Of a DNA stretch of 64,000 bases, positions 21,883 through 64,000 are shown one piece after another. The stretch comes from Planktothrix tepida (GTDB lineage Bacteria > Cyanobacteriota > Cyanobacteriia > Cyanobacteriales > Microcoleaceae): assembly GCF_904830955.1 (NCBI RefSeq), contig NZ_LR882970.1; one strand, given 5' to 3'. The number at the start of each line of letters is the position of its first letter. Within the stretch, counting starts at the first letter, position 1. Below the pieces are notes generated by a model. The model did not search any database. It worked only from the letters and a program-made list of their open reading frames with translations, and was not told the origin of the DNA. Made by a program: the position numbers and the translations under genes.

Positions 21883-21925
21883 GAATCCTTTAACTCCTCA
21901 CAGCTTACTTTAATGGTTTTTTATT

Positions 21926-22288: not shown

Positions 22289-22333
22289 GATTTGTTATTC
22301 AAATAGCTAAGTTAATCATTGTTAAAAATTAGT

Positions 22334-23359: not shown

Positions 23360-23480
23360 AAAGTTCTGTTTGTCCTCAACACCATTTGTTTTTTCGTATC
23401 ATAAACGAAAGTTACCCATTCGTAAAGGTTAAACTCTAGGAACTTGATTAAAATAGTAAGTCGATACTAAGTTTATTTTT

Positions 23481-24047: not shown

Positions 24048-24049
24048 GA

Positions 24050-25114: not shown

Positions 25115-25188
25115 AACTTTATTATTCTTTATTATGGTTATAGTTTAGCATTAATTAGGGATATAAGAGCTAAAAAAAGTAATTTTTT

Positions 25189-46788: not shown

Positions 46789-47280
46789 CTATTGAACAGC
46801 CATTGTCACTAATTCTTGGAGCTTTTGATCGAGCATTTCTGCAACTCTCAAAATTTTCGGATTCTCAAATCTACCTAATAGAGATGAAGGTTGATCATAG
46901 GTAATATAAGTTTTGCCATTATATTCATCATACACAAACAATCGCAGGGGAACGTAAAGACCGACTGCCGGGTCTTCTTCAAACATTTGATTCGCAATCA
47001 GGGGATTACCAATTATATAAAGTTTAGCTTGTTTAAATTTGCCACATAAGGAAAGCACTTTACCAGATTCAAGGTGTGTAAAAATCATTAAATCATGTTT
47101 ACCCACCATTGATTTAACTGCATTTTCTACTTCTGTAAAAGAGGCATTTGCATCTATCAACTTTTGAAAAATCAGATTATTAGCTTTACCAACCATTGAC
47201 TCTATAGCCGTGGTGACTTGGGCAAAGGATTTTTCTGAAGACACTTTTATGTGGTTTACGGTGAAATTAATAGTTTCCAT
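46789..47280 (-). CDS. DUF302 domain protein
   Basis: 163 aa. GNPLIANQMFEEDPAVGLYVPLRLFVYD fits the DUF302 core. Confidence 0.6.
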   Translation of the reverse strand: METINFTVNHIKVSSEKSFAQVTTAIESMVGKANNLIFQKLIDANASFTEVENAVKSMVGKHDLMIFTHLESGKVLSLCGKFKQAKLYIIGNPLIANQMFEEDPAVGLYVPLRLFVYDEYNGKTYITYDQPSSLLGRFENPKILRVAEMLDQKLQELVTMAVQ

Positions 47281-47380: not shown

Positions 47381-47653
47381 TTATAATCCAGCTAGATATT
47401 TTGATAAAGACTCAATTGAGGGGTAATCATAGGTTATGGTTGGATCAATAGAACCTCCCAACCAGTTCTCTAAATCGCTAGTTAATCCAATAGTCGCTGA
47501 GGAATCCAAGCCATAGCGGTCAAAAGAAGCTTTAACATCAACTTCATTGGGATCAATTTCCAGAAGTTGGGCTATATAAGAAACCAACCAAGCTTGAATA
47601 GCAGATTGGTTCTTGTGGGTTTCAACAGCGATTTCTTGATTTTGAATTGCCAT
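47381..47653 (-). CDS. Stand-alone acyl carrier protein
   Basis: 90 aa with the phosphopantetheine-attachment motif YGLDSSATIGL. It is cotranscribed with four desaturases and a FAAL. Confidence 0.75.
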   Translation of the reverse strand: MAIQNQEIAVETHKNQSAIQAWLVSYIAQLLEIDPNEVDVKASFDRYGLDSSATIGLTSDLENWLGGSIDPTITYDYPSIESLSKYLAGL

Positions 47654-47862: not shown

Positions 47863-48828
47863 CTATGTTGCCTTTCTAGCTGCTAAAAAAGCTTTTTTAG
47901 CTTTGATAGTATCGGCTTTAGGAATCTTGACATCCCAAATTAAACCCAGCTTTTCTAAAATGAGGACAACCCAGCCCCCGATATCAACTTGCCACCAGTC
48001 GAAACCAAAAATGGCTGATTGCGGAAAAGCATGGTGACTATTGTGCCATCCTTCACCCAAGGAAGGAAGAGCCAGCCAGAGATTGTTCCGGCTGTGATCA
48101 GGGGTATTAAAGGAGCGACCGCCAAGGACGTGACAAAAAGAGTTGACGCCATTGATGAGGTTATTGACAAAGAACATCCGCACCAGTCCTCCCCAAAGAA
48201 AGCCTTGAAAAGCTCCCAGCCATGAGTTTGTCAAAACACCGCCTAGGATAGCAGGAATGACCAGTCCTAAAATCACCCACAGCCAATAATATCGGCTCGC
48301 TGTTGTTAGGGCTTTGTCCCGCAGTAAGTCTGGAACATAGTGGATGGTATTGGGGTGTTCTCTGTTGGTCGCTAACCAGCCATCATGAGCGTGCCAAAAG
48401 CCTTTGATCTGATCCGTAACTCCTTCTCCAAAAAGATGGGGAGAATGAGGATCTCCGGGTTGATCGGCATATTCATGATGACGACGATGGGCGGCTACTG
48501 CCAACAGCAAGGGGCCAGGGGCTGCCATAGAACCTAGAATTGCTAAGGTCACTCTAACAACGACATTAGCTTTAAACGCATTATGGCTAAAAAGGCGATG
48601 CCAACCCACAGTAAAGCCAATTTGAGTTAAGAACCACAAACTGATAAACAGCCCTAAGTCCACCCAAGTCATAGGAATTCCGAACAATAGTAAAACAATG
48701 GCGGTGATGAATCCCAAAAAAGGTACAACTTCAAACAAGATGAAGTGTATGGTTTGAGGAACTCTCAGGTGAGGGGCTGTGACGGTTTTTTGTCTTTTGT
48801 CTGGATTAACAAGAGGCTCTGTAATCAT
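47863..48828 (-). CDS. Membrane fatty-acid desaturase, Delta9 acyl-CoA/acyl-lipid type, paralog 1
   Basis: Three His boxes: HRLFSH, HRRHHEYAD, HNSHHAFP. 4 TM helices. Confidence 0.85.
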   Translation of the reverse strand: MITEPLVNPDKRQKTVTAPHLRVPQTIHFILFEVVPFLGFITAIVLLLFGIPMTWVDLGLFISLWFLTQIGFTVGWHRLFSHNAFKANVVVRVTLAILGSMAAPGPLLLAVAAHRRHHEYADQPGDPHSPHLFGEGVTDQIKGFWHAHDGWLATNREHPNTIHYVPDLLRDKALTTASRYYWLWVILGLVIPAILGGVLTNSWLGAFQGFLWGGLVRMFFVNNLINGVNSFCHVLGGRSFNTPDHSRNNLWLALPSLGEGWHNSHHAFPQSAIFGFDWWQVDIGGWVVLILEKLGLIWDVKIPKADTIKAKKAFLAARKAT

Positions 48829-48894: not shown

Positions 48895-49827
48895 CTAGTT
48901 GCAGGCTTCATTACAACTCACCTTTCTTTTTTTAGCGGCGATCGCTTCGGCTGTAGGCATTTTCAAGTCCCAAACCAAACCTAGCTTTTCCAGTAGTCGA
49001 ATCACGAAGCCACCGACATCGATTTGCCACCAGTGGAAACCATGAATAGCCGCATAAGGAAAAGCATGGTGGTTGTTGTGCCATTCTCCACAGGTGAACA
49101 AGGCAACCCAGAGGTTATTGCGGCTATAGTCGTCAGTCTCAAAGGGACGATTTCCTAAGAGATGGGCCAGAGAGCCAACCGTCCAAAAACCTAAATGGTG
49201 TTGAAGGAAGATACGGAGAAAGCCGCCCCATAATGTTCCGGTCAACGCCCCCATCCAAGTTCCGGTGATTACTCCACCAATAACACCAGGAATCGCTACT
49301 CCCAAAAATAGCCACAAATAATAAAGTTGGCTAATTCTGTTCAGCATGGGATCTCGCACCATGTCTTTAGCAAAGACAAAGGTGTTCGTGAGTTCATGAT
49401 TGAATGTCCAACCGACATGAGAATGCCATACACCTTCTAAAAAGCCCAATTTTTGCTCTTCTTTAACAAAGGGAGAATGGGGATCTCCGGGGGTATCGCT
49501 GTATTTGTGGTGACGGCGATGGGTGGCTACCCAATAATTGAGGGGGCCTTCTGCGGCCATAGAACCCAGGACAGCCAGGATAATTCTCACCGTCTGATTA
49601 GCCCCGAAGGCGCAGTGGGCAAAGTGTCTATGCAGCCCTACTGTTACGCCAATCGCTGTTAAAAAATACATAATTAGCAATAGCCAGATATCTACGGCAC
49701 TAACACCGATCTGAAAAGCCAGGACTACTGCTGCTACAGATCCGCTTAAGGGAATGATGAGATTGCTGATGCCGTGAATTTCTTGTTGTCTTTTCAGGCG
49801 ATCGCTTTTAATTGTGATTGCTTGCAT
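48895..49827 (-). CDS. Membrane fatty-acid desaturase, paralog 2
   Basis: His boxes HRHFAH, HRRHHKYSD, HNNHHAFP. Confidence 0.85.
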   Translation of the reverse strand: MQAITIKSDRLKRQQEIHGISNLIIPLSGSVAAVVLAFQIGVSAVDIWLLLIMYFLTAIGVTVGLHRHFAHCAFGANQTVRIILAVLGSMAAEGPLNYWVATHRRHHKYSDTPGDPHSPFVKEEQKLGFLEGVWHSHVGWTFNHELTNTFVFAKDMVRDPMLNRISQLYYLWLFLGVAIPGVIGGVITGTWMGALTGTLWGGFLRIFLQHHLGFWTVGSLAHLLGNRPFETDDYSRNNLWVALFTCGEWHNNHHAFPYAAIHGFHWWQIDVGGFVIRLLEKLGLVWDLKMPTAEAIAAKKRKVSCNEACN

Positions 49828-49864: not shown

Positions 49865-50884
49865 TTAATCCTGAGCTAGGGTAATTGTTTTCGCCTCTAT
49901 CATCTTGGCGGTGGGCAGATTTACATCCCAAGCCCAGCCTAATTTTTCCAAGATCCAAATTACTGCATAACCAATATCAATTTGCCACCCTTTCAAACCG
50001 ATAGCAGCAGAGCTTTCAAACGCATGGTGATTGTTTTGCCAAGACTCGCCAAACGTTGGGATAGCCACCCAAGGGTTATTCTTGCTTTGATCGCCTGTCT
50101 TAAAACCACGAGTCCCATAAACATGAGAGACGGAATTAACGCTCAATATGATGTTATCTACAATAAACAGGCGCACAACACCACCCCAAAGAAAGCCTTG
50201 CAATGCTCCTATTAGGGACAAATGAAGTAGTCCGCCGATCATAGTAGGAATCGCTAGACCCAGAAGCACCCAAACTAGATACAATCGGCTAATTTTGGAT
50301 ATGCTTTGATCTCGCAGGAGTTCAGGGGCATAATAGGTTGGATTAGGATAATCATGATCAATCAGCCAGCCAACATGGGAATGCCATAATCCCTTGAGAG
50401 TTCCGAGAAATCCCTGACCGTGAAGATTAGGGGAATGGGGATCACCGGGTAGATCACTGCACTCATGATGGCGACGATGAACGGCTACCCAGGAAATTAA
50501 GGGCCCTTGGGCAGCTACAGAACCCAATATGGCGAATATCACCCGAATGCTCTGGTGAGTTTTAAAAGCACGATGGGTATAGTAGCGATGAAAACCGACA
50601 CTCACCCCGGTCATGGTCAAAGCCCACATCACAATCAGCATTCCGATCTCGATTGGCCCAATGGGTAGCCACAAAAGAGAAATGATCGCCACAATTGTTC
50701 CTAAAAAGGGAATGAAATTGTACCACCAAAAATGTTTATATTGCAGTCCTTTAATGTAGTCATTGCTAATAACCTTTGTCTTCTGATTGGGTATGGCAGT
50801 ATCGAAATGTGTTGTCATTCTCTGAACTCCTAATAGATGACGCAATACAAAAATTTGGCAGTGAAAAAATCCGGATTCAGTCAA
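49865..50884 (-). CDS. Membrane fatty-acid desaturase, paralog 3
   Basis: His boxes HRYYTH, HRRHHECSD, QNNHHAFE. Confidence 0.85.
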   Translation of the reverse strand: MTESGFFHCQIFVLRHLLGVQRMTTHFDTAIPNQKTKVISNDYIKGLQYKHFWWYNFIPFLGTIVAIISLLWLPIGPIEIGMLIVMWALTMTGVSVGFHRYYTHRAFKTHQSIRVIFAILGSVAAQGPLISWVAVHRRHHECSDLPGDPHSPNLHGQGFLGTLKGLWHSHVGWLIDHDYPNPTYYAPELLRDQSISKISRLYLVWVLLGLAIPTMIGGLLHLSLIGALQGFLWGGVVRLFIVDNIILSVNSVSHVYGTRGFKTGDQSKNNPWVAIPTFGESWQNNHHAFESSAAIGLKGWQIDIGYAVIWILEKLGWAWDVNLPTAKMIEAKTITLAQD

Positions 50885-50889
50885 GTTTA

Positions 50890-51876
50890 CTAGAAATTGC
50901 TGGCATCTATTGTTAAATTTTCTGACTGTTTGTTAACCTTCAACTTTTCTGCAATCATCCCGGCTGTGGGGGTTTTGAGATCCCAAGCTAAACCTACTTT
51001 TTGGAGAGCCAGAATCACCCCACCGCCAATATCAATTTGCCACCATTTCAGACCTAACAAGGCTGAGTGTGGAAAAGCATGATGATTGTTATGCCAAGCT
51101 TCTCCAAAGTTGGCTAGAGATAGCCAGAATGTGTTGTGGCTTTGCTCTTCGGTATCAAAGGGGCGTTGTCCATAATAGTGAGCAATGGAGTTAATCGTCC
51201 AAAAGGCATGATTAACCCAAAAGATTCGCACCAATCCCCCCCAGAGAAATCCTTGTAAAATGCCTATCCAAGTTCCCGTGAGAAGTCCGTCTACAATTGC
51301 CGGAATGGCTAAACCCAGGATAACCCAAGTCAGATAGAAACGATTGACTTTGGTAATTATTGGATCTCTGAGCAAGTCTTTAGCAAAAACAACCGTATTG
51401 GTAACGTCACTGTTCAACATCCAAGCAACTTGACCATGCCACAATCCCCGCAGAGTTGCCCATTTTTCTCCTTTGTATATTAAGGGGGAGTGGGGATCCC
51501 CTGGGCGATCGCTATACTTATGATGCCGACGGTGAATACTTGCCCATTGAATAACAGGCCCTTGAGCGGACATACATCCTAATATTGCTAACAGGATTCT
51601 AATGACTGTATTTGTCTTAAAAGCACCGTGAGCAAAATGTCGATGAAAACCCACTGTTATTCCCAGCATTGTCAAGGTATACATGACCAGAAATAGTCCA
51701 ATGTCTACTGAACTGATCCCAAACTTAAAAGTTGTATAAATGGCTATTAATAACCCAAAAAAAGGAATCAAGATAGTAGCAAAGGCGTAACGCTGTTGCA
51801 GGGATTTAAGATAATCATTTTCTAGGGTGATCTTGGGGCTTATATTGGGTGTTGGGCTATCCACGGGTATAGACAT
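50890..51876 (-). CDS. Membrane fatty-acid desaturase, paralog 4
   Basis: His boxes HRHFAH, HRRHHKYSD, HNNHHAFP. Only 5 nt separate it from paralog 3. Confidence 0.85.
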   Translation of the reverse strand: MSIPVDSPTPNISPKITLENDYLKSLQQRYAFATILIPFFGLLIAIYTTFKFGISSVDIGLFLVMYTLTMLGITVGFHRHFAHGAFKTNTVIRILLAILGCMSAQGPVIQWASIHRRHHKYSDRPGDPHSPLIYKGEKWATLRGLWHGQVAWMLNSDVTNTVVFAKDLLRDPIITKVNRFYLTWVILGLAIPAIVDGLLTGTWIGILQGFLWGGLVRIFWVNHAFWTINSIAHYYGQRPFDTEEQSHNTFWLSLANFGEAWHNNHHAFPHSALLGLKWWQIDIGGGVILALQKVGLAWDLKTPTAGMIAEKLKVNKQSENLTIDASNF

Positions 51877-51936: not shown

Positions 51937-53682
51937 TTATAACTCCGATTTTCCAATCTTTCCCCCGACAATATTGAGAGTTTCGCACAGAAACTTTTCT
52001 TTGCAAATACGCCGTTGAATTTTGCCACTGGAAGTTTTAGGAATACTCCCCGTTTTAATCAGTACCGTGCCATAAGCCTGGATTTCATGTTGCTGCATGA
52101 TGGCTTCGCCGATTTCTGCTACGACCTCTTTGACATTCAGATGTCGTAAATGTGTCCGTTCGACTTCAGCTACTATGACTAACTGCTCTGTATTATCTTT
52201 TTCTATTGCAAAAGCTGCACAACAATTGCCTCGCAACGCTGGATGGCTGGTTTCTACTGTTATTTCAATATCTTGGGGGTAATAATTGCGACCTCTAATA
52301 ATAATCATATCTTTCATCCGTCCCGTGATGAATAGCTCACCCTCTCGCAAAAATCCTAGATCTCCAGTGCGGAGAAACGGCCCATGATGAGGATCTGCTA
52401 GATAAGCTCCAAAGGCTTGTTCTGAAAGTTCCGGTTGGTTCCAATAGCCTTGGGCAACACTTTCACCCGATACCCAGATTTCCCCGACTTGACCTGAATG
52501 ACATTGCTGAAAAGATTCGGGTTCAACGATGACAATTTTGGTATCTAGCCAACCTCGTCCACATCCAACGAGATGTCTAACATTTTCAACGTCTTTAGAT
52601 GCTTCTGTCACCCCATTTTGCTCTAATGCGTCGGCTGCAACGGTGCAGTAAATGGGTTCTTCTTGAACCAGTCCCCCTGAAATCATTAAGGTAGATTCAG
52701 CCATCCCATAGCAGGGATAAAAACTCTTAGCCGGGAAACCACAAGGGGCAAATTTAGCAATAAAACGCTCTAAAGTTTCTCTCCGCACGGGTTCAGAACC
52801 ACTGTAAGCACTTTCCCAGCTACTGAGGTCGAAGGTTTCAAGTTGTTCATTGGTAATCTTCTGAACGCAAAGATCGTAGGCAAAATTAGGCCCGCCGCAG
52901 TGGGTTGCTTTGTAGTTTGTAATTGCCTGTAGCCATCGCCAAGGGTGTTGGATAAAACTTTCGGGTTTCATCAATACGCCCATAAATCCGGTGTACAAAG
53001 GCTGAATAATTCCATCAATTAGACCCATATCATGAAAACTGGGTAGCCAGCTAACCGATATACTGTCTTGTGTCAGTTGAAAGGCTTGTTTGATATACTG
53101 CGAATTGTGGAGTAAATTACCATGAGTTACCATTACTCCTTTTGGTGTTCCTGTCGATCCAGATGTGTATTGGAGAAAAGCTAAAGAATCTATTGTTGTT
53201 GTTGATTTCTCCCAATTTGAAGCTAGATCAATACTAATTTCATCGCTAACTATTAAAGGTAAAGTTGCTAATTCGGGATAATGAGTTAGTTGTGATTTGA
53301 GTTTGCTGAATAGAGATGTTGTAGTTAGTGCTAATGTTGCTTGTGAATCTGATTTGATTGTTAAAAGCCGAGTTGCTGGTCTGTTGGGTCGAGGAGGATT
53401 AACAGGAACTGCGATCGCATCAGCATATAAACATCCAAAAAAAGCACTAATAAATTCTAAACCGGGTGGATATAATAATAATACTCTTTCGCCCCGATTA
53501 ATTTTCTGACCCAGTTGATAGGCAATTGCTCTGGCTTTTTGATCCAATTCTTGATAGGTTAATTGATCTGATTCTTGTTCTCCATTTGGAAGAAACTTAA
53601 ATGCTATTTGGTTAGGTTGAGCAACGGCCTGATCCCGTAGTATTTCTACTAAAGTTAAATCCCTTTTTTCTATTTTCCCCAT
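51937..53682 (-). CDS. Fatty acyl-AMP ligase (FAAL)
   Basis: LQYTSGSTGTPKGVMVTHGNLL AMP-binding motif, with the FAAL-type insertion and a C-terminal GKIQRR block. Confidence 0.85.
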   Translation of the reverse strand: MGKIEKRDLTLVEILRDQAVAQPNQIAFKFLPNGEQESDQLTYQELDQKARAIAYQLGQKINRGERVLLLYPPGLEFISAFFGCLYADAIAVPVNPPRPNRPATRLLTIKSDSQATLALTTTSLFSKLKSQLTHYPELATLPLIVSDEISIDLASNWEKSTTTIDSLAFLQYTSGSTGTPKGVMVTHGNLLHNSQYIKQAFQLTQDSISVSWLPSFHDMGLIDGIIQPLYTGFMGVLMKPESFIQHPWRWLQAITNYKATHCGGPNFAYDLCVQKITNEQLETFDLSSWESAYSGSEPVRRETLERFIAKFAPCGFPAKSFYPCYGMAESTLMISGGLVQEEPIYCTVAADALEQNGVTEASKDVENVRHLVGCGRGWLDTKIVIVEPESFQQCHSGQVGEIWVSGESVAQGYWNQPELSEQAFGAYLADPHHGPFLRTGDLGFLREGELFITGRMKDMIIIRGRNYYPQDIEITVETSHPALRGNCCAAFAIEKDNTEQLVIVAEVERTHLRHLNVKEVVAEIGEAIMQQHEIQAYGTVLIKTGSIPKTSSGKIQRRICKEKFLCETLNIVGGKIGKSEL

Positions 53683-53838: not shown

Positions 53839-55350
53839 CTAAAATACTTCTAAATCTGAAAACCGCCCCATTTTTTGAGCCTGTGCAGCTTCACCACAAG
53901 TCGGAGGTGTGGGAAACATCTTACCTGGATTTGCCAAACCTTGAGGATTAAAAGCTAGGCGCGGCCATTGCATGGTATCTAAATCAATATGATTAAACAT
54001 TTCCGGCATCAAACATTTTTTATCAGCACCAATACCATGTTCTCCAGAAATACTTCCACCCACTCTCACACAAAGTTTTAGAATTTCGCCACTTAATTCT
54101 TCAACCTGTTTAAAAGCACCAGGAACGGAATGATCATAAAGAATGACTGGATGTAAGTTGCCATCACCCGCATGAAGGGCATTAGCAATACGATACCCAT
54201 ATTGATTTCCTAAAGCTGAAATTTCCTTAAGAACAGCGACTAATTGAGTCCGAGGGATCACTCCATCTTGAAGAAAATAATGACTTTGATAACCTAATGC
54301 AATTAGGGCTGTTTTACGTCCTTGCCAAAGTTTGATTCGCCTTTGTTCGTCACTAGCAATGATTACATTTCTGGCTCCGTTTTGTTGGCAAATTTTAGCA
54401 ACCTGCTGTTTACTGCTTTCAACTTCTACTGCTAAACCATCAACCTCTATCAACAAAACTGCCTCAGCATCTCTAGGATAACATCCGGTATTAATAACAT
54501 CTTCAATCGCTTTAATCGTAGTCCCATCCATTAATTCCATTGCCGCCGGAATTATTCCAGCACTAATAATATGAGTAACCGTATCACCTGCGGCTTCAAT
54601 AGTGGTAAAGTCTGCTAGAACAGTACCAATGGCTTCAGGTGTTTTAATAATGCGTAAAGTAATTTCTGTGGCAATACCTAGAGTGCCTTCTGAACCGATA
54701 AATAAACCCGTGAGATCATAACCGGGCATTTCTGAAATGATTCCCCCAACATCAACTACAGAACCGTCAGGAATTACCAATTTTAATCCCAAGACATGAT
54801 TCGTTGTTACTCCATATTTCAAGCAATGAATACCCCCCGCATTCTCCGCAATGTTACCCCCAATTGTACAAACCGTTTGACTGGAAGGATCTGGTGCATA
54901 ATAAAAACCTTTACCACTAATGGCTTGAGTCACCCAATTATTGATCACACCAGCTTGCACAATAATTCGCTGATTTTCTAGGTCAACTTTTAAGATTTTG
55001 TTCATTAAGGTGGTGACAATTAAAACACAATCTTCAACGGGTAGTGCACCTCCAGATAAACCTGTTCCCGCACCCCGCGTCACCCAAGGAATTTGGTTTT
55101 CATAACAGATTTTTACTACCTCTGCTACTTGTTCAGTAGTGCGGGGTAGTACCACTAATGCGGGACGTTGACGATAGCTTGTTAAACTATCACATTCATA
55201 GGTGAGCAATTCTTCCTGACGTTGGACAACTCCTTTTTTACCCACAACCGCCTCAAATTTTGGGGCAATTTTTTGCCATTGAGACACGCCATGGCTCTTC
55301 TGTACTTGTAGAGGAGAGGCGATATTCTGATTAATCATTTTGTCGATCAC
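53839..55350 (-). CDS. FAD-linked oxidase, GlcD/D-lactate dehydrogenase family
   Basis: FAD-binding PCMH domain (VVLPRTTEQVAEVVKICYENQIPWVTRGAGTGLSGGALP) plus a C-terminal FAD-oxidase domain. Confidence 0.8.
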   Translation of the reverse strand: MIDKMINQNIASPLQVQKSHGVSQWQKIAPKFEAVVGKKGVVQRQEELLTYECDSLTSYRQRPALVVLPRTTEQVAEVVKICYENQIPWVTRGAGTGLSGGALPVEDCVLIVTTLMNKILKVDLENQRIIVQAGVINNWVTQAISGKGFYYAPDPSSQTVCTIGGNIAENAGGIHCLKYGVTTNHVLGLKLVIPDGSVVDVGGIISEMPGYDLTGLFIGSEGTLGIATEITLRIIKTPEAIGTVLADFTTIEAAGDTVTHIISAGIIPAAMELMDGTTIKAIEDVINTGCYPRDAEAVLLIEVDGLAVEVESSKQQVAKICQQNGARNVIIASDEQRRIKLWQGRKTALIALGYQSHYFLQDGVIPRTQLVAVLKEISALGNQYGYRIANALHAGDGNLHPVILYDHSVPGAFKQVEELSGEILKLCVRVGGSISGEHGIGADKKCLMPEMFNHIDLDTMQWPRLAFNPQGLANPGKMFPTPPTCGEAAQAQKMGRFSDLEVF

Positions 55351-55388: not shown

Positions 55389-55646
55389 ATGACGGCTAAA
55401 GTAGAAATTTACACTTGGACTTATTGCCCTTTTTGCCCTAGAGCCAAAGCCTTACTTAAGAAGAAAGGGGTTGAATTTACTGAATACTCTATTGATGGGG
55501 ATGAAGACGCTAGAGCTAAGATGGCAGAACGAGCTAATGGCAGACGGAGTGTTCCTCAAATTTTCATCAATGATCAACATATTGGTGGTTTTGACGATAT
55601 TTCCGCATTAGATAAGCAGGGAAAACTGGACGAACTTTTACAATAA
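55389..55646 (+). CDS. grxC: Glutaredoxin 3
   Basis: CPFC active site, TVPQIFI and GGFDD motifs. 85 aa. Confidence 0.9.
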   Translation: MTAKVEIYTWTYCPFCPRAKALLKKKGVEFTEYSIDGDEDARAKMAERANGRRSVPQIFINDQHIGGFDDISALDKQGKLDELLQ

Positions 55647-55695: not shown

Positions 55696-56817
55696 TTAAT
55701 GGTCAAGTTCTTGCTTGACCAGTTCTTGAATATCTTGGGTAATAATTGAGCGAATATCAGTACCTTGATCATACATTTTTAACCACTTTTGTGCAGTATT
55801 TCCTTCCTGTAAAATTGTTTGTATAGGTAAGAGAAAATGCTCAAAGCCTTGCTGTTTTACGAAGGGCAAAACATCATTATAAATTTCATTAATCCAATGT
55901 CGAGCTAGAATTTTTCTACCGTCTTGCCAATGTCTTAACTCAGCTTCTAAACTAGATACTTTGACGGCGGCTTCATTCGCTTTTGTTAAATCAATTAAGT
56001 CTTGTTTCCGGGTTGTTGCTGGTAATTGACTCATTTCTAAAGGGTCAATTCTCGGATCATTAATCAATTGCAAAAGCCGCGCTTCTAACAAAGCGGTAAT
56101 AGCCAGAAGAGAATGAGGATCTGTCACTAAATCACAAATTCTGAGTTCTAGCCGATTAAGATCATAAGGTCGGCGATCGCCATTGGGTCGAACATTATCC
56201 CAATGATGACGAACATTAAACATTGTTCCTGTGGCTAAATGTCCTTCTACCCATTCAATATATTCGGCCTGATTTTCAAATAGGGGAATATGATATTGAG
56301 AATGGGGTAAAATGTGCCAGCGTGTAGAGTGATAACCCGTAATTTGATTATCCAGAAATGGAGAGGAAGCACTTAAGGCTAAATATAAGGGTGCTTCCAT
56401 TTTAATCAGCCGACAAGCTCGGATCAGCAGTTCTGGATCACTAAAACCAATGTTGATATGAACACTAGCAGTAACCACATTAGTTCCGTGGTTGCGCTCA
56501 ATATATTCTAAATAAGGATTTGTATCTCCTGAACGATAAAAGCGATCGCTTCCTCCTAATGATAATGTACTTCCAGGAATTAGGGTATATTCTCCCAAGG
56601 TTTGGAGATATTTTCTGAGTTGAATTCGCGGTAATATTAATTGACTTAAAAGCTGGTTATAGCTGGCAAGAGGTTCAGTTGTATATTCTATATGGCGCTC
56701 GTCTGTTTCTTGCATAAACCTATCCACTTTGCCGATAATTTTTTCAGCCAAAGGAATCGGATCACCTTGGGGAGTACCCAGAAATATTTCTAATTCAAAG
56801 CCTTTCGTTAATAGCAT
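55696..56817 (-). CDS. gshA: Glutamate--cysteine ligase, cyanobacterial/plant-type GshA
   Basis: MLLTKGFELEIFLG...IEYTTEP start and overall GCS2-family similarity (recalled). Confidence 0.72.
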   Translation of the reverse strand: MLLTKGFELEIFLGTPQGDPIPLAEKIIGKVDRFMQETDERHIEYTTEPLASYNQLLSQLILPRIQLRKYLQTLGEYTLIPGSTLSLGGSDRFYRSGDTNPYLEYIERNHGTNVVTASVHINIGFSDPELLIRACRLIKMEAPLYLALSASSPFLDNQITGYHSTRWHILPHSQYHIPLFENQAEYIEWVEGHLATGTMFNVRHHWDNVRPNGDRRPYDLNRLELRICDLVTDPHSLLAITALLEARLLQLINDPRIDPLEMSQLPATTRKQDLIDLTKANEAAVKVSSLEAELRHWQDGRKILARHWINEIYNDVLPFVKQQGFEHFLLPIQTILQEGNTAQKWLKMYDQGTDIRSIITQDIQELVKQELDH

Positions 56818-56822: not shown

Positions 56823-57959
56823 TTAATCCAAGTTAATGGTTTTAATTCCACTTTTTCCAGGAATTTTGGCAATTAGTAAATTAATGGCATTGACTACCGG
56901 ATCTAAATAAGCCTGGGTTAAAGTCGGATAAGGCTGAGGTTGGTTTTTGCCAATACCAAATTCTAATTTTTCCTCTTTTTCGGGTAGATATAAAGTCCCA
57001 AACATCCAGTCCCAAATTCCCAAAAACTCCCCGTAGTTCTTGTTAATGTGTTGGGGTGCTATGCTGTGATGAATTTGGTGTAGAACTGGACTTATAAAAA
57101 TATGGTTCCCTATCTTTCCATAATCAAGCCAGATGTGAGAATGGGCAAGATTACCACCTGCCATATAATATAGAGCGACCAAAAAATTCAGACCAAATAG
57201 AGTTATAACATGGATTTTACCAAAAAATAGATAAATTAGTATCCCTTGTAAAGGAGCGCTGATGGCTGTAGTAATCAGCTTTTTATTAAGTTCATATAAG
57301 GGGTGAGAACGATATAAACTAATGGGGGTCAAGACTTCACTGGAATGATGTAGACTGTGAAATTGCCACAGGATAGGATTTTGGTGATGCCAAGCATGGT
57401 TAAGGTAAGATGCAAAGTCAAAAACTGCAACAAATAAGAGGGTAAAAATCACGAGCGATCCCAAGTTTTCGGTTGTGAATCCGCCAAAATAACCAAAGGT
57501 TGCTTGCAGCCAATTATTGACTAGAGATGCTACTAATGATGTTTCAAACCACGCTAAACGCAAATTACCAGGAGCGAGAATATTATTGATGATAAAGATT
57601 TGATAATCTAGCAGGGCTGAAGGATGAAAGTAGATTTCTTTGGGGAAGCAAAAACTAAGAAATCCTTTAAAGTTAAGATCAGACTTAGGTTGCGATCGCC
57701 AATAAACCAGTCCAGCCAATAACAGAGAAGTTAATAAATATAGCCAATAAAGGCGACGGCTACCATTAAGGTGATGGAAGATTTGACTGCGAAAATATTC
57801 AAGAATTTGACCTAGTAATCTTTCTAGGTCTGCTACCCAAGTTGTTAATTCTGGTGTCATGGAATGTTTAGAAACAGAGAGTAGGGGGTGCTGAAATTTG
57901 CTAATTTTTATTACTGATTTAGCATTGGAGCCGAGACAAAAATATTTAGTCTGAGTCAA
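56823..57959 (-). CDS. Fatty acid hydroxylase / sterol desaturase superfamily membrane oxygenase
   Basis: His boxes HAWHHQ, FHSLHHSSE and LHQIHHS on a polytopic membrane scaffold. It overlaps the downstream DMT gene by 14 nt. Confidence 0.7.
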   Translation of the reverse strand: MTQTKYFCLGSNAKSVIKISKFQHPLLSVSKHSMTPELTTWVADLERLLGQILEYFRSQIFHHLNGSRRLYWLYLLTSLLLAGLVYWRSQPKSDLNFKGFLSFCFPKEIYFHPSALLDYQIFIINNILAPGNLRLAWFETSLVASLVNNWLQATFGYFGGFTTENLGSLVIFTLLFVAVFDFASYLNHAWHHQNPILWQFHSLHHSSEVLTPISLYRSHPLYELNKKLITTAISAPLQGILIYLFFGKIHVITLFGLNFLVALYYMAGGNLAHSHIWLDYGKIGNHIFISPVLHQIHHSIAPQHINKNYGEFLGIWDWMFGTLYLPEKEEKLEFGIGKNQPQPYPTLTQAYLDPVVNAINLLIAKIPGKSGIKTINLD

Positions 57960-58926
57960 CAGTAATTTCTTGAATGGCTGCTTTCTGAGAACCTTGAGCA
58001 GATTTAGCTAAATATATCCCAGCCAACACGGCAAAAAACGCTACCCAGTTGAGGATAGTGAGTTTTTCGGAAAATATTACCCAGGCTAATATGGCAGTAA
58101 TAATTGGATCAAGCAACAGAAACAAAGATACAAAACCTGATGAAAACTTTTTCAGGTTATGGAACATAATCACCGTCGCTAGAACTTGACAGAAAAGTGC
58201 GAGGGAAATTACGGCTAACCATCCATTCACGGAAATGGGAAAAATTTGATCATCAAAAATCAAAGTTATGGGTAACAGCCAAAGAGTTCTGAACAAACAA
58301 CTCCATAATATGATAGTTGTTGCCGAAAACTTAGCTCGTAGTTTTTCTGCACAGAGAGCATTGCCCGCATAAAATACAGATGAAAGTAAAGCGATCGCAT
58401 CTCCTCTAAAATGAGTGCTCGTTAAGTTAAAATCTTCAAAACCAATAGTTAACGCACCGACTGAAGCTAAAATCAAACCCATAATAAATTTGCTGTCAAA
58501 CCTGTGTTTTAAAAATAGCCAACCGCCTAAAGTGGCAAAGAATGGGGTGAAATTATGCAATAAATTGGAATTAGCGATATTGGTTTGAGTTAAAGACCAA
58601 GCCCAAGCCGTTAAATTAGCCGCACCAAAACCCGCAGCTAGTACAAATAATCCTATATCCTGAAGAGTCCAAGACTCCTGGGGTTTAGGGGGTTTCTGGG
58701 ATACTTTACTACTGATAATTGTGATGATCTCCCAAACCCCAAGGATGACAGTAGAAATCAAAAACCGATTAAAGACTGTAGCATTAGGACTAATTTCTTG
58801 TTCGCTGACTCTGATAAATATTGGTGCTAGAGACAACATAAATACTGCTAGGGGAATTAACAGTAAAGTGTTCAGAGTTGGTTTTGTTTCAGTTTGTACT
58901 TCTGGAACATTGACTGTGATAGTCAT
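57946..58926 (-). CDS. DMT-superfamily (EamA) transporter
   Basis: 10 TM helices with two EamA repeats. Confidence 0.75.
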   Translation of the reverse strand: MTITVNVPEVQTETKPTLNTLLLIPLAVFMLSLAPIFIRVSEQEISPNATVFNRFLISTVILGVWEIITIISSKVSQKPPKPQESWTLQDIGLFVLAAGFGAANLTAWAWSLTQTNIANSNLLHNFTPFFATLGGWLFLKHRFDSKFIMGLILASVGALTIGFEDFNLTSTHFRGDAIALLSSVFYAGNALCAEKLRAKFSATTIILWSCLFRTLWLLPITLIFDDQIFPISVNGWLAVISLALFCQVLATVIMFHNLKKFSSGFVSLFLLLDPIITAILAWVIFSEKLTILNWVAFFAVLAGIYLAKSAQGSQKAAIQEITVDSD

Positions 58927-59067
58927 AATTTATTAAGGAATGTTGATTGAACGGCAAGTATATACTTGGTGATGCTCAGACTACATATTGCAAGTTATTC
59001 TACAATATACCTGATTAAGCTTGATTCTATAATAGAAGATTAAGTATTTTAACTGACGAGGGGGTTT

Positions 59068-60465
59068 GGGGGAGCGATAAGTCCCACACTGAATTTCACA
59101 CTCACCAAAAGATAACCACCAAATCAGTGTGGGTTACATGGACTCCCCCAAGTTAATTTTAAGCGGTGAATCCCGACAAAATTAACAATAATATGTTAGA
59201 TTATATCTAATAGTTTTGAAAGCGATAATGTTTCAAGGGTATAAGTTCCGAATCTATCCAACGATTGAACATCAGATTGTCTTAGCCAAAAGCTTTGGCT
59301 GTTGTCGTTGGTATTGGAATTATGCCCTGAATTTGTGTCAAGAAACTTATAAACAAACAGGAAAAGGGTTATCAAGAAAAGCGATTCAAGGATTATTACC
59401 TCAACTGAAGAAGGAATATCCTTGGTTAAAAGATGCCTATTCTCAATGTTTACAAGTTGTCGCTCTTAATTTATCTACCGCTTACAAAAACTTCTTTGAA
59501 AAACGGGCTAGATTACCTCAATTCAAATCCAAACACGGTAGACAATCAATCAGTTATCCTCAAAATGTTACCTTTGAAGGGGATTATCTGAAATTACCCG
59601 GCAAGATTGGGTTGATTTATTGTCGTCGCCACCGAGAATTTGAGGGGACAATTAAAACCGTTACTATCTCAAAGAATCGTGACGGGAAATACTACGCATC
59701 CATCTTGGTTGATGATGGCAAGGAAATACCTAATTCATCAACTAATGGAAAAGCGATTGGGATTGATTTAGGATTAACCCATTTTGCAATTACCAGTGAT
59801 GGTGATAAATATAGTAACCTCAAACACTTTGCCAAACATCAACACAACTTAAAACGAAAACAACAAAAATTATCTCGTAAACAAAAAGGGAGTAATAGTA
59901 GACAAAAGGCCCGATTAAAAGTTGCTAAACTCCACGCTAAAATCGCTCGTTGCCGAGAAGATTTTCTGCACAAGCTATCCCGCAAGATAGTTAACGAAAA
60001 CGTAGAGACGTGCCATGGCACGTCTGTACTTGCTGTAGAAGATCTGGCAGTTAAGAATCTGGTCAGAAACCCTAAATTAGCTAAGGCAATTAGTGATTGT
60101 GGTTGGGGAATGTTCTGTACAATGTTGAAGTACAAAGCCGAAAAAGAAGGGAAAACCTATATCGAAATTGATCGGTTTTTCCCTTCTTCTAAAACTTGTA
60201 ATGTCTGCCTTAATCAAGTGGGTAGTTTACCCCTTGATATTAGAAGTTGGACTTGTGAAAATTGCCAAACTCTCCATGATCGAGATATAAATGCTTCAAT
60301 TAATATCAAAAATGAAGCCTTGCGGATTCTGTCGTTAGGAACTAGCGACACTGCCAATCTGAGGGGATGTAAGTCATCTGGTAAAACTTTTGTTCTATCA
60401 GATGCTATCCCCGTCGAAGTTGGAAGCCCGTACAGACGTGCCATGGCACGTCTCTACTCGTAGAG
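59068..60465 (+). mobile_element. IS200/IS605-family element carrying only tnpB (IS1341-like)
   Basis: An imperfect long hairpin at the left end (GGGGGAG..CCCACACTGA...TCAGTGTGGG..GACTCCCCC, 59068-59149), the tnpB ORF, and a right-end palindrome (60430-60457) just before the tnpB stop. No tnpA. Confidence 0.7.
59216..60463 (+). CDS. tnpB: TnpB (OrfB), RuvC-like RNA-guided nuclease of the IS605 family
   Basis: OrfB_IS605 N-terminus (YKFRIYPT), RuvC motifs (IGIDLGL...; AVEDLAVKNL), and a C-terminal zinc finger CNVCLN...CENCQTLHDRDINASINI. Confidence 0.88.
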   Translation: MKAIMFQGYKFRIYPTIEHQIVLAKSFGCCRWYWNYALNLCQETYKQTGKGLSRKAIQGLLPQLKKEYPWLKDAYSQCLQVVALNLSTAYKNFFEKRARLPQFKSKHGRQSISYPQNVTFEGDYLKLPGKIGLIYCRRHREFEGTIKTVTISKNRDGKYYASILVDDGKEIPNSSTNGKAIGIDLGLTHFAITSDGDKYSNLKHFAKHQHNLKRKQQKLSRKQKGSNSRQKARLKVAKLHAKIARCREDFLHKLSRKIVNENVETCHGTSVLAVEDLAVKNLVRNPKLAKAISDCGWGMFCTMLKYKAEKEGKTYIEIDRFFPSSKTCNVCLNQVGSLPLDIRSWTCENCQTLHDRDINASINIKNEALRILSLGTSDTANLRGCKSSGKTFVLSDAIPVEVGSPYRRAMARLYS

Positions 60466-60594
60466 AAGTGTGGGTAGTTCACGAGGCATCGCTCCAATAT
60501 TGCTAGAAGTGGTAAAATCCTAATTCAGCTATTCTCCTAGCTGCCACTATGGTTATTACTAACAATTCTCAAGCAATAAATAAAGAATATTTTT

Positions 60595-63500
60595 ATGGAA
60601 GCTATCGCAATAATTGGAATGGGTTGTCGTTTCCCCAAAGCTCAAGATATAGAATCCTTCTGGAGACTACTGAAGGAAGGCCTAGATGCCATCACTGAGA
60701 TCCCGATACAGCGATGGGATATTAATGATCTATATACTCCCAAAGCAGGTACACCGGGAAAAACCGTGTCCCGTTGGGGCGGCTTCTTAGATAATATCGA
60801 TCATTTTGATCCTGACTTTTTCGAGATTCCCGTCGGTGATGCCCAGCGCATAGACCCCCATCATAGACTGGTATTAGAGGTGGCTTGGGAATCTTTAGAA
60901 AATGCTGGTATCGTCCCCCATACATTAGCAGGTAGTAAAACAGGGGTATTCATTGGCATGAGCCAAAGCGATCATAATAGACTGCTTTATAAAGATATAT
61001 CTGCCATAGATGCTGAAGATGGGCCCCACACATTTCTTTGTTTTGTAGCTAATCGCTTATCTTACTTGTTAAATTTGCAAGGGCCTAGTTTAGCGATTGA
61101 TACCGCTTGTTCTTCCTCTCTTGTTGCTGTACATTTAGCTTGTGAGAGTTTACGCACTGGTGAGTCTAATTTGGCTATTACTGGAGGAGTATCTTTACGT
61201 TTATCTCCAGAAGAATCAATTGCTCTTTCTCTCAAAGGGATGCTATCTCCTGATGGTCGCTGTAAAACTTTTGATGCTGAAGCGAATGGTTTTGTTAGGG
61301 GTGAAGGGTGCGGAATTGTTGTTCTCAAACGCCTTGATGATGCCCTTAAAGATAGAGATAATATTCTAGCTGTTATTAGAGGGTCGGCTGTTAACCATAA
61401 TGGTCTGAGTCATGGGATTACATCTCCTAATGGACTGGCTCAACAAAGACTGCTTCAACAAGCGCTGGAAAATGCTGAAGTCTCACCCAATCAAATTGGT
61501 TATGTGGAAACCCACGGGACTGCTTCGGCTTTAGGAGATGCTATTGAATATAAAGCCTTAAAAACAATATTAATGCCAAATCGAGAACCAGATCAACCTT
61601 GTTGGCTGGGCTCAGTTAAAAGTAGTATTGGTCATTTAGAAGCGGCGGCTGGAATAGCAAGTTTAATTAAGGCAACCCTATCCCTGCAACATCGACAGAT
61701 TTTTCCTAATCTACATATTAAACAAGTCAATCCTTATATTTCTTTAGCCGGGACAACTTTCTCGATCCCAACCGCTTTAGAGCCTTGGACTTCAAGCACA
61801 GAGTCAAGATTTGCTGGAGTAAGTTCTTTTGGTTTTGGGGGTACTAACTGTCATGTCATTTTAGAAGAAGCTCCGTTATTACCTCGGAAAAGTATCACCC
61901 CGATGGAACGTCCCCTACATCTTCTGACCCTATCAGCCAAGAGCGAAAAGGCACTATTAGACCTGGCAAATCTTTATAGAGAAAACTTGCAGAACAGTGA
62001 TGCTAATTTTTCCCTAGCAGACTTCTGTTTCAGTGCTAATACCGGAAGAACTCATTTTGACCATCGTTTAGCTGTTGTGGCAGAATCACAGGCAGTATTG
62101 GTAGAAAAGTTAGCGACTATTGCTCATCAAACTGATATTTTGGGAAGGGATAAAAAGCGATCGCTCAAGGGTCAGCAACCCAAAATAGTATTTTTATTCC
62201 CTGGACAGGGGACTCAATATCTTAATTCCTGTCGTCAACTCTACGAAACTCAACCGACTTTTCGGGCTATTTTAGATCGCTGCCAAGAAATTCTCCGCCC
62301 TTATTTAGATCAGCCACTACTAAAAATTTTATATCCAGAATATCAGAACACAGCCACTCATTTATTAACTGAAACAGCCTATACCCAACCTGCTTTATTC
62401 GCCCTGGAATATGCCTTAGCTGAGTTATGGAAATCTTGGGGGATCATCCCGGATGCTGTTATGGGTTATAGCCTGGGTGAATATGTAGCAGCTTGTGTGG
62501 CTGGGGTGTTTAGTTTAGAAGATGCCCTCAGTCTAGTCGCCCAACGGGGACATTTAATGCAATCTTTATCGCCGCAGGGAGTAATGGTGGAGGTTTTGGC
62601 GGATGTGACCCAGGTGGAAACTGCTATTGCACCTTATCGATATAAGGTGGCGATCGCAGCCGTCAACAGTCCTAAAAATATCATTATTTCGGGTGAAATT
62701 GAGGCAGTTGAAGCCGTCGTCGCAACTTTGCAAAATGATAATATTAAAACCCGAAAGTTAAACTACAATCTAGCTTTCCATTCTCCTTTAATGGAACCCG
62801 TTGCCACCGCCTTTAAACCCATTGCTTCAACCATAACTTATTCATCCCCAAAAATTAGGATCATTTCTCCGATTACGGCACAGCCCATTCAAGCAGAAAT
62901 CGCAACTCCTGAATATTGGTGCAATCAGATTCACCAGCCAGTCCGATTTGCTGATAGCATCAAGACTCTTGATCATCAAGGTTATAAAGTCTTTGTGGAG
63001 GTAGGCCCCCAATCTCTACTTTTGGCAATGGGTAGAGAGTGTTTAGATCCGGGTGTGGGGGTTTGGTTAACGGGGGCTAGTTCCGATGGGTCAGACTGGC
63101 TACAACTCCTGCAAAATTTAGCAACTTTATATTTACAAGGAGTTCCTGTAGATTGGCATGGTTTTGATCGGGATTATCCTCGAAATTGGCAATTACTACC
63201 AACTTATCCCTTCCAAAAACAACGATACTGGTTTGATCAAGATGCCAATAGTTTTTACCAAACTACCCCATTATCAAACCCAGTATCAAACCCAGAAATA
63301 GCTTGTCAAAATAGTCTGAAAACCCCATCAAACCCCGATTTAAAAACAACTCTAAATTCTGATTCTACTGACGATTTAGCTTCATTGGTTTTGACTCCTA
63401 CAGCCGAATCAATTCAAAATTGGATAGTCAATTGGCTGCATCAAAATTTACCCGGAGAAATTCAATTAACAGACAATAGCAAATCAGGAAAATCTTTTCT

Positions 63501-64000
63501 GGATTATGGACTCAAATCCATAGGAGCAGTAAAATTAGCTAAAGATTTAGAACAATTGCTCGGACGTTCCTTAGAAGCCACAATTGTTTGGAATTTTCCG
63601 ACTATTGAATCTTTAGCGCTGCACTTAGCTGGTGATCCAGAAAACCCAGTTTCAACGGTTGAAGAGGAGCACAAAAAGTTAATCAGTCCATTCCCCGTTG
63701 GCAAAAAAGCGATGCAATTTAGCTTATTATATTTTGCCAGTAACGAAGCTGAATTCAAAGATGACAAGTACAGATTATTAATAGAAAGTAGCCAATTCGC
63801 TGATAAACATGGCTTTAGCGCAGTTTGGATACCCGAACGCCATTTTCATGCTTTTGGTGGACTTTACCCCAATCCTGCGGTTTTGGGTTCTGCTCTGGCA
63901 ATGGTAACAGATCGCATTCGTATTCGTGCGGGTAGCGTGGTTTTACCCCTACATAACCCTATCCGAGTGGCTGAAGAGTGGGCGGTGGTGGATAACCTTT
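60595..64000 (+). CDS. Type I polyketide synthase, KS-AT-ACP-LLM (luciferase-like monooxygenase) domains; 3'-partial
   Basis: KS: GMGCRFP...DTACSSSLVAVHLAC...HGTASALGD...GHLEAAAG. AT: GQGTQYL...GYSLGEYVA. ACP: DYGLKSIGAVKLA. Then MQFSLLYFASNEAEF...HGFSAVWIPERHFHAFGGLYPNPAVLG (LLM fold). There is no stop codon before the window end and no loading domain before the KS. Confidence 0.9.
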   Translation, partial: MEAIAIIGMGCRFPKAQDIESFWRLLKEGLDAITEIPIQRWDINDLYTPKAGTPGKTVSRWGGFLDNIDHFDPDFFEIPVGDAQRIDPHHRLVLEVAWESLENAGIVPHTLAGSKTGVFIGMSQSDHNRLLYKDISAIDAEDGPHTFLCFVANRLSYLLNLQGPSLAIDTACSSSLVAVHLACESLRTGESNLAITGGVSLRLSPEESIALSLKGMLSPDGRCKTFDAEANGFVRGEGCGIVVLKRLDDALKDRDNILAVIRGSAVNHNGLSHGITSPNGLAQQRLLQQALENAEVSPNQIGYVETHGTASALGDAIEYKALKTILMPNREPDQPCWLGSVKSSIGHLEAAAGIASLIKATLSLQHRQIFPNLHIKQVNPYISLAGTTFSIPTALEPWTSSTESRFAGVSSFGFGGTNCHVILEEAPLLPRKSITPMERPLHLLTLSAKSEKALLDLANLYRENLQNSDANFSLADFCFSANTGRTHFDHRLAVVAESQAVLVEKLATIAHQTDILGRDKKRSLKGQQPKIVFLFPGQGTQYLNSCRQLYETQPTFRAILDRCQEILRPYLDQPLLKILYPEYQNTATHLLTETAYTQPALFALEYALAELWKSWGIIPDAVMGYSLGEYVAACVAGVFSLEDALSLVAQRGHLMQSLSPQGVMVEVLADVTQVETAIAPYRYKVAIAAVNSPKNIIISGEIEAVEAVVATLQNDNIKTRKLNYNLAFHSPLMEPVATAFKPIASTITYSSPKIRIISPITAQPIQAEIATPEYWCNQIHQPVRFADSIKTLDHQGYKVFVEVGPQSLLLAMGRECLDPGVGVWLTGASSDGSDWLQLLQNLATLYLQGVPVDWHGFDRDYPRNWQLLPTYPFQKQRYWFDQDANSFYQTTPLSNPVSNPEIACQNSLKTPSNPDLKTTLNSDSTDDLASLVLTPTAESIQNWIVNWLHQNLPGEIQLTDNSKSGKSFLDYGLKSIGAVKLAKDLEQLLGRSLEATIVWNFPTIESLALHLAGDPENPVSTVEEEHKKLISPFPVGKKAMQFSLLYFASNEAEFKDDKYRLLIESSQFADKHGFSAVWIPERHFHAFGGLYPNPAVLGSALAMVTDRIRIRAGSVVLPLHNPIRVAEEWAVVDNL

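Follow-up and report, generated by a model that had tools for sequence, protein, structure and literature searches.

A one-module polyketide synthase with monooxygenase and thioesterase domains, the probable chain-terminating enzyme of a fatty-acid-tailoring island in Planktothrix tepida

We examined a 64,000-nt stretch of genomic DNA from the cyanobacterium Planktothrix tepida (contig NZ_LR882970.1), referred to here as the window, at whose right-hand end lies a gene for a type I polyketide synthase (PKS; 60595..64000, plus strand). The gene was confirmed to be real, intact and of one module, encoding in order ketosynthase (KS), acyltransferase (AT), acyl carrier protein (ACP), luciferase-like monooxygenase (LLM) and thioesterase (TE) domains. 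With moderate confidence, we interpret the PKS as a complete, stand-alone single module and as the chain-terminating enzyme of a horizontally spread fatty-acid-tailoring island of ∼19 kb. The island also encodes a fatty acyl-AMP ligase (FAAL), a stand-alone ACP and four membrane desaturases. Every domain and enzyme type is known; the combination of the FAAL/ACP/four-desaturase cassette with a KS-AT-ACP-LLM-TE protein is undescribed in the literature searched.

The reading frame of the PKS gene (frame 1) is open over all 1135 codons in the window, with no stops and no frameshifts. Its translation is 100% identical along its entire length to a P. tepida protein of 1663 amino acids in the protein database (P0001). 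From the length of P0001, the stop codon is predicted at ∼65586; 1135 of the 1663 codons thus lie inside the window, and the gene runs off its end, as a preliminary description of this DNA had stated. According to Pfam, P0001 contains KS, AT, PP-binding, PF00296 (Bac_luciferase) and PF00975 (thioesterase) domains. The N-terminus is the KS itself (MEAIAIIGMGCRFP), and the protein has no loading domains. The N- and C-terminal ketoacyl-synt families matched residues 1–375 (E values of 3e-90 and 2.5e-40) and were followed by KS-AT linker families, Acyl_transf_1 at residues 532–818 (1e-60), PP-binding at residues 966–1011 (1.5e-6) and Bac_luciferase at residues 1040–1135 (3e-16), the last covering positions 1–95 of a profile of 314. 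These E values are far beyond chance. The domains agree with the KS-first start without a loading module and with the KS-AT-ACP-LLM order given in the preliminary description. No ketoreductase (KR) or sulfotransferase (ST) family was matched in P0001 using Pfam and NCBIfam.

The KS domain (60595..61872, plus strand) was assigned from Pfam, alignment and the ratio of non-synonymous to synonymous substitution rates (dN/dS). It possesses Cys172 (DTACSSS, residues 169–175), His307 (ETHGTAS, residues 305–311) and His347 (SIGHLE, residues 344–349). This Cys-His-His triad is complete in P0001 and in every orthologue aligned, which favours a true decarboxylative condensation. Among the PKS orthologues, dN/dS was 0.04–0.13 for the KS and ≤0.10 for the LLM; the AT of the window protein is under weaker purifying selection than either (0.16–0.26). 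Between P. tepida and Planktothrix FACHB-1365, the dN/dS of the KS was 0.035 and the LLM had no non-synonymous changes. As judged from sequence comparison, the KS, LLM and TE are under purifying selection. The reading of the PKS as a pseudogene was ruled out by the open frame together with this selection. The preliminary description had regarded a disrupted KS-AT region, or a canonical known cluster downstream, as fatal to its proposal; the KS-AT region has neither a frameshift nor a stop, and no canonical known cluster is seen downstream.

The window encodes the N-terminal 96 residues of the LLM (63712..64000, plus strand), the remainder of the domain and a type-II-like TE lying outside it. 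In P0001, residues 1042–1376 matched TIGR04020, the MupA/Atu3671 family of NCBIfam, with 493.8 bits against a cutoff of 244.45. The best match of the LLM in the Protein Data Bank was 6KET, 'PuwE' (E value of 1.7e-125, ∼60% identity, 340 residues aligned), which bears out the earlier suggestion of kinship with the puwainaphycin synthetases. The 3-amino-2-hydroxy acyl unit of puwainaphycin has been attributed to the Ox domain of PuwE and an aminotransferase, with the Ox domain providing the 2-hydroxyl (PMC4219810). MupA, a member of TIGR04020 like the LLM of the PKS, catalyzes the α-hydroxylation of an ACP-bound thioester in vitro (PMC10952193). The TE comprises the last 230 residues of the protein, resembles the type II thioesterases RedJ, RifR and TesA, and has a GHSLG motif and the conserved His. 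The preliminary description was wrong about what follows the LLM, which is a TE rather than the aminotransferase or the condensation-adenylation-peptidyl carrier protein (C-A-PCP) module that it anticipated.

Relatives of the LLM are very common in LLM-FAAL-ACP fusions, as free LLMs, and in LLM-ACP-reductase and LLM-aminotransferase proteins. In addition, LLM-TE alone adjoins FAAL, acyl-CoA dehydrogenase (ACAD) and ACP genes at loci L007 and L008, and ACP-LLM-TE occurs with ACAD and FAAL at L097 and L098. Because the LLM relatives perform α-hydroxylation and because LLM-TE and ACP-LLM-TE occur as stand-alone proteins, we read ACP-LLM-TE as a recurring release unit that would oxidize Cα and then hydrolyse the thioester. 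The PKS gene reads as this unit joined to KS-AT. As a separate observation, the free LLM-TE and ACP-LLM-TE proteins of these four loci are 42–45% identical to the C-terminus of the PKS, and their neighbours, on non-cyanobacterial contigs, are FAAL, an acyl-CoA-dehydrogenase-like gene, a desaturase or patatin, and MMPL genes. The four loci look like a recurring, undescribed cassette for FAAL-dependent oxidation and release.

We propose the following course for the pathway, all steps of which were deduced from family membership and gene context. The FAAL would adenylate a fatty acid and load it onto the stand-alone ACP of 90 residues. The four membrane desaturases would modify the ACP-bound chain, as in thiotemplated alkyne/polyyne cassettes. 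The KS would take the chain from the stand-alone ACP and condense it with malonyl on the internal ACP, a C2 extension. Malonyl would be loaded by the cis-AT in the window protein and presumably by FabD in orthologues in which the AT is dead. The in-line LLM would then hydroxylate the α-carbon (C-2) of the ACP-bound thioester, and the fused type-II-like TE would hydrolyse the product to a 2-hydroxy-3-oxo acid, from which ready loss of CO2 would yield a 1-hydroxy-2-ketone. An EamA transporter would export the product. The remaining island proteins, namely a membrane fatty-acid hydroxylase (FAH), a GlcD-like oxidase, a glutamate-cysteine ligase (GshA), a glutaredoxin (Grx) and a DUF302 protein, might take part in further tailoring, or else in conjugation or self-protection based on thiols. 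Oxidation of a 2-hydroxy acid or an alcohol, and the conjugation of thiols to an electrophilic product or protection from it, can reasonably be guessed at for these accessory genes, but no more than that.

The upstream FAAL and stand-alone ACP to which the preliminary description had pointed are present on the minus strand, at 51937..53682 (FAAL; Pfam and NCBIfam) and 47381–47653 (ACP; 90 residues, GLDSS motif, best NCBIfam match the N-terminal ACP of Pks13). The FAAL-desaturases-ACP block lies 7–13 kb from the PKS gene on the opposite strand, with the GlcD-like, Grx, GshA, FAH and EamA genes and an insertion sequence (IS) element between them. The layout of the window alone would not justify a functional link between the FAAL and ACP and the PKS; the justification comes from comparison between loci. 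At least four arrangements of this gene set were found across Planktothrix, Nostocales and metagenomes. In the window and in Planktothrix FACHB-1365 (L001), the PKS gene is divergent from EamA-FAH-GshA-(Grx)-GlcD-FAAL-Des4-ACP-DUF302, where Des4 denotes the four desaturases. The downstream context of the PKS gene was read from the FACHB-1365 locus, whose PKS is 97% identical. A collinear order, FAAL-Des4-ACP-PKS-EamA-FAH-GshA-(Grx)-GlcD-DUF302, was found at L003 and L004. At L006 and L011, Des-ACP-DUF302 is convergent with GlcD-(Grx)-GshA-FAH-EamA, which is followed by the PKS. At L091–L096, PKS-FAAL-Des4-ACP-DUF302 forms one transcription unit; FAH-GshA-(Grx)-GlcD is convergent with it, and dnaG marks the boundary. 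A distant variant, L005, has Des-ACP-PKS, with 30 nt between the end of the ACP gene and the KS and with a FAAL gene close by, and the homologue P0066 is a FAAL-ACP-KS-AT-ACP-LLM fusion. Overall, the recurring gene set, the adjacency at L005 and the P0066 fusion lend good support to the priming of the PKS in trans by the FAAL and ACP, which the preliminary description had proposed and which we infer here.

Sequence identities between orders point to the movement of the gene set as a unit. Every island gene is 80–96% identical between Planktothrix (Oscillatoriales) and Dolichospermum/Anabaena (Nostocales): 90% for GshA, 94–96% for Grx, 86–87% for the GlcD-like oxidase, 90–91% for EamA, 86–87% for the KS and 90–91% for the LLM. 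The synonymous divergence (dS) of the PKS between Planktothrix and the Nostocales is only 0.6–0.75. Such values are far below what is expected of vertical descent between orders. The island GshA is 87–90% identical between islands of different orders, as compared to at most 66% to every other cyanobacterial GshA. Database proteins matched the window GshA with 99% and 90% identity; those at 90% form a cluster of 35 members, and every context read belonged to this island. The high identity across orders, the low dS and the gap in GshA identity therefore indicate that the ∼19-kb unit, from 46789 to ∼65586, behaves as one horizontally spread island. The GshA, Grx, GlcD-like and DUF302 genes travel with it, which points to an accessory module of thiol metabolism that is linked to the lipid pathway. 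That gshA, grx and glcD are housekeeping genes splitting the cluster by chance was considered and ruled out by the GshA relatives and the per-gene identities.

Several observations weigh against the assignment of the PKS as a terminal module that extends, hydroxylates and releases the chain. The α-hydroxylation attributed to the LLM, as opposed to Baeyer-Villiger oxidation or cleavage, is suggested solely by its relatives. The literature searched contained no description of the product of the island, of the PKS architecture or of the island itself. Only the glutaredoxin was found where a redox partner for the desaturases might be expected: no rubredoxin, ferredoxin or ferritin gene was present in the window island, L003, L091 or related loci. 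The insertion of an IS element near the ATG of the PKS gene may alter its expression in P. tepida, the open reading frame (ORF) being intact. The internal ACP (63445..63654, plus strand; Pfam and alignment) reads GLKSIG (residues 972–977; 63508–63525), with Lys in place of the usual Asp before the phosphopantetheinyl Ser, which is present. This Lys is common to all close orthologues; other ACPs preceding an LLM read GxDS. Finally, the His-to-Tyr substitution beside the catalytic Ser of the AT and the decay of the AT in orthologues make chain extension less than certain.

The AT domain (62185..63084, plus strand) is full length in the window protein and vestigial in several orthologues. It has the GQGTQ motif, Ser626, Arg651 and the His of LAFHS, with the His of the GHSxG motif replaced by Tyr. 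The resulting GYSLGE (residues 624–629; 62464–62481) includes the catalytic Ser626; this motif and GLKSIG had both been singled out as unusual in the preliminary description, and both are present. We take the xAFH motif of the window AT to be nearer the malonyl type, according to general knowledge of AT specificity motifs. P0001 and P0002 have GYSLGE, and P0003 and P0005 have GYSMGE. Of the 120 best KS-AT matches, ∼114 have GHS, and GYS was limited to the PKS clade and one Nostoc PKS; the substitution marks the entire clade. Other members have changed further. The motif reads GYCIGE in P0004 (Ser to Cys), GYGVGE in P0009 and P0072, and GYGWGE in P0121 (Ser to Gly in these three). In P0005, P0009, P0072 and P0121, the AT has lost 82–103 residues, among them the AFHS His region, and the GQG motif is also gone from P0005, P0009 and P0121.

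By these sequence features, the AT is plainly dead in several orthologues. In the AT-decayed members, the KS, ACP, LLM and TE are 77–89% identical (P0005 and P0121), or 57–79% for P0009, a more distant member; in the alignment, P0072 is without most of its TE region. The shortened AT was seen in the isolate genome of Anabaena UHCC 0187 (L010) and in many independent metagenomes, and is therefore not an assembly artefact. Since the AT is lost or dead while the other domains are kept, the cis-AT is dispensable in part of the family. The decay is stepwise across loci L005, L006, L010 and L091–L096, with Ser-to-Cys and Ser-to-Gly substitutions, loss of GQG and deletions, the TE being kept where present. 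At the level of sequence, the orthologue series is a natural transition from a cis-AT to an AT-less form.

These features of the AT bear on a second interpretation, which we regard as possible if rather unlikely, namely that the module does not elongate. The AT would be vestigial throughout the clade, the His-to-Tyr change being the first step, and the KS would only pass the desaturated acyl group to the internal ACP, yielding a 2-hydroxy fatty acid of unchanged length. The PKS would then be a cis-AT-derived counterpart of the KS0-ACP α-hydroxylation bimodules of trans-AT systems and of the systems that combine a FAAL with ACP-LLM-TE. KS0 junctions of this kind are where MupA and OocM act (PMC10952193). 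Moreover, P0005, P0009, P0072 and P0121 have a clearly dead AT, no extra AT gene was found in those islands, and ACP-LLM-TE and LLM-TE units occur with FAALs without any KS. However, every member retains the full Cys-His-His set of the KS, including the His for decarboxylative condensation. KS0 domains usually lose this His. In addition, the window AT keeps GQG, Ser, Arg and His and is under purifying selection, and, in members with a dead AT, malonyl could come from FabD in trans. We retain chain extension in the preferred course.

A third interpretation concerns the chemistry of the LLM. Acting on the β-ketoacyl thioester, the domain might use its flavin peroxide for Baeyer-Villiger insertion or oxidative C–C cleavage, with the TE freeing a chain-shortened or ester product and a C2 fragment, such as glycolate, that the GlcD-like oxidase would handle. 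Luciferase-family enzymes include type II Baeyer-Villiger monooxygenases. Also consistent with this chemistry is the distribution of the GlcD-like 2-hydroxy-acid oxidase, whose gene always accompanies that of the PKS and directly follows it in the Xenococcaceae locus L012. By contrast, the nearest characterized relatives of the LLM, MupA and the PuwE Ox domain, are α-hydroxylases, and we consider Baeyer-Villiger or cleavage chemistry improbable.

The region upstream of the PKS gene raises the question of whether the gene is silent or decaying in P. tepida. A TnpB-only element of the IS200/IS605 type (59053..60482, plus strand; TnpB ORF at 59216/59229–60463; Pfam OrfB_IS605, Cas12f1-like_TNB and HTH_OrfB) splits the 240-bp divergent intergenic region between the EamA and PKS genes. 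This element of 1.43 kb lies 112 bp upstream of the PKS ATG and is missing from the otherwise 97%-identical FACHB-1365 locus. It contains no TnpA, and no Rfam match for an omega-RNA was found in it. In a scan of the IS and intergenic region, promoter-like sites occurred at the level of shuffled sequence and terminator-like sites were few. There is only a slim chance that the insertion has silenced the PKS gene or set it on a path of decay: the ORF is intact, the comparison of the two Planktothrix strains described above shows strong constraint on the KS and an unchanged LLM protein sequence, and TnpB is oriented towards the PKS gene, which could give read-through transcription.

The known systems closest to the PKS are the hybrids of the PuwE (puwainaphycin) and MicD (microginin) types. 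These share FAAL and stand-alone-ACP priming, a minimal KS-AT-ACP followed by an LLM of the same family, and a presumed α-hydroxylation of the ACP-bound chain. They differ in that they pair the Ox domain with an aminotransferase and run into C-A-PCP, whereas in the PKS the TE directly follows the LLM; the upstream cassette described here further has four desaturases. No aminotransferase Pfam family was matched in P0001–P0005 or P0009, and none was among the 25 best NCBIfam families of P0001. Similarly, no C-A-PCP module of a nonribosomal peptide synthetase (NRPS) and no aminotransferase (PF00155, PF00202) was found in or beside the PKS at L001–L006, L009–L012 or L091–L096. At L005, a single A-PCP-TE gene is found downstream of the PKS, at a distance of two genes, with neither a C domain nor an aminotransferase, and the genes that follow the PKS in FACHB-1365 are convergent and unrelated. 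The proposal in the preliminary description that an aminotransferase and a lipopeptide line follow the LLM thus fails: the full protein ends in LLM-TE, and none of more than 10 related loci carries these two defining features of a lipopeptide synthetase. Despite the FAAL and ACP in trans, the matching KS-AT-ACP-Ox order and the ∼60% identity of the LLM to the PuwE Ox domain, it is very unlikely indeed that the PKS opens, as its first module, an assembly line of the puwainaphycin or microginin type for β-amino/hydroxy fatty-acid lipopeptides with an aminotransferase and NRPS downstream, a role refuted for the PKS family by the full-length sequence and the gene contexts. The earlier interpretation is, overall, partly supported.

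Other systems resemble the proposed terminal module in part. MupA shares the TIGR04020 LLM family; it is free-standing and joins a trans-AT line midway, at a KS0-ACP junction, whereas here the LLM is fused between ACP and TE in a terminal module of the cis-AT type. The olefin synthase Ols and the terminal module of CurM are alike in a FAAL-primed single extension, a modifying domain, off-loading by a TE and likely decarboxylation. However, their KR-ACP-ST-TE arrangement sulfonates a β-hydroxyl for decarboxylative elimination, while the PKS has an LLM and lacks KR and ST. In the terminal NRPS module of MtaG and MelG (myxothiazol and melithiazol), a luciferase-like monooxygenase (MOX) and a TE effect release via α-hydroxylation of the carrier-bound unit, as proposed here. 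Unlike the PKS, these are NRPS modules acting on a glycyl extension and leaving a terminal amide, with the LLM inserted in the A domain.

The polyyne/alkyne cassettes (pgn, cay and jamABC) resemble the island in gene content: both have a FAAL, a dedicated ACP, at least three adjacent His-box desaturases, thioesterase release and thiotemplated logic. The core of the polyyne/alkyne clusters comprises FAAL, ACP, three desaturases, TE and rubredoxin (PMC9828172). By comparison, the island has four desaturases, lacks rubredoxin and ferritin, and would release its product via KS-AT-ACP-LLM-TE as opposed to a discrete TE. No polyyne is known from the host organisms of the island, and the supplements of the polyyne survey mention neither Planktothrix nor Dolichospermum nor cyanobacteria. 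The gene clusters of two known cyanobacterial polyynes were unassigned as of 2021 (PMC8406139).

In its most far-reaching form, which we put forward as doubtful, our interpretation would make the island the first cyanobacterial pathway to a polyyne-type, or highly unsaturated, fatty acid, and would unite with this a new PKS off-loading logic, thiol chemistry and horizontal movement. Off-loading would consist of one C2 extension and in-line α-hydroxylation by the LLM, then hydrolysis by the TE and decarboxylation, and would yield an unsaturated α-hydroxy-ketone or 2-hydroxy-3-oxo acid that reacts with thiols. The pathway's own γ-glutamylcysteine ligase, glutaredoxin and 2-hydroxy-acid oxidase would provide built-in conjugation or self-protection, and the 19-kb unit would move between bloom-forming Oscillatoriales and Nostocales.

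If the proposed mechanism is true, the PKS would represent a new chain-release logic, with an LLM where the olefin synthases have KR-ST. The island is a concrete candidate for the biosynthesis of highly unsaturated or acetylenic lipids in cyanobacteria. A PKS family in which the cis-AT decays within a module under selection bears on the origin of trans-AT-like systems. Finally, the transfer of GshA, Grx and GlcD-like paralogues with the island suggests that thiol metabolism is connected to a lipid natural product, a link as yet unexplored.

The remaining island genes in the window lie between the PKS gene and the left edge of the island. The EamA/DMT transporter, a putative exporter identified using Pfam (57946..58926, minus strand), is divergent from the PKS and 86–91% identical in other islands. 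Its gene overlaps that of the FAH, a member of the membrane di-iron fatty-acid hydroxylase family (PF04116; 56823..57959, minus strand; Pfam and NCBIfam). The true start of the FAH is probably 3′ of the listed TTG, because its orthologues are of 345 residues. The FAH and GshA genes are 5 nt apart, the latter (55696..56817, minus strand) encoding an island-specific glutamate-cysteine ligase of the GCS2 family (TIGR02048, 550 bits). The glutaredoxin gene (55389..55646, plus strand; Pfam) has products 91–96% identical in other islands. The GlcD-like FAD-linked 2-hydroxy-acid oxidase (53839..55350, minus strand) scored 561 bits, slightly below the 568-bit cutoff for glcD.

The four tandem desaturase genes are at 50890–51876, 49865–50884, 48895–49827 and 47863–48828, all on the minus strand. 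Their products each have three His boxes (HRxxxH, HRRHH and (H/Q)NxHH) and are 46–51% identical to one another. The best annotated relatives of the desaturases are a Nostoc acyl-CoA desaturase (53%) and an uncharacterized Des-ACP-FAAL cassette on a Burkholderia gladioli plasmid (41%). A locus on plasmid bgla_4p of B. gladioli BSR3 (L089, 119513–138436) has the order desaturase-ACP-methyltransferase-desaturase-amidohydrolase-FAAL-PaaI thioesterase-hydrolase; its desaturases are 37–44% identical to those of the window, and the cassette looks to be of the alkyne type. The DUF302 gene (46789..47280, minus strand), present in every related island, forms the left edge, and a CitMHS transporter gene outside the island gene set (44923–46728) sets the border. 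A scan of Rfam detected no families at 46–64 kb.

Elsewhere in the window, the region 20803–26646 (minus strand) encodes a UbiA prenyltransferase, an SMR/EamA-like small transporter, two NAD-dependent epimerases/dehydratases, a DUF218 protein and a GMC oxidoreductase, and may be a locus for the modification of lipid-linked sugars or glycolipids. At 34748–36500 (plus strand), an AAA_21/AAA_15 ATPase (AbiEii/OLD-like) is followed by an overlapping ORF of 202 residues that has no Pfam match; the two may form a small defence gene pair. A restriction endonuclease of the Cfr10I/Bse634I type and a convergent C-5 cytosine methylase are encoded at 8231–10411, and a PrlF/YhaV toxin-antitoxin pair at 1541–2373. 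Finally, genes of the chlN/chlL type for the dark-operative protochlorophyllide oxidoreductase (DPOR) occur at 10546–14478, with a DUF5331 gene between them.

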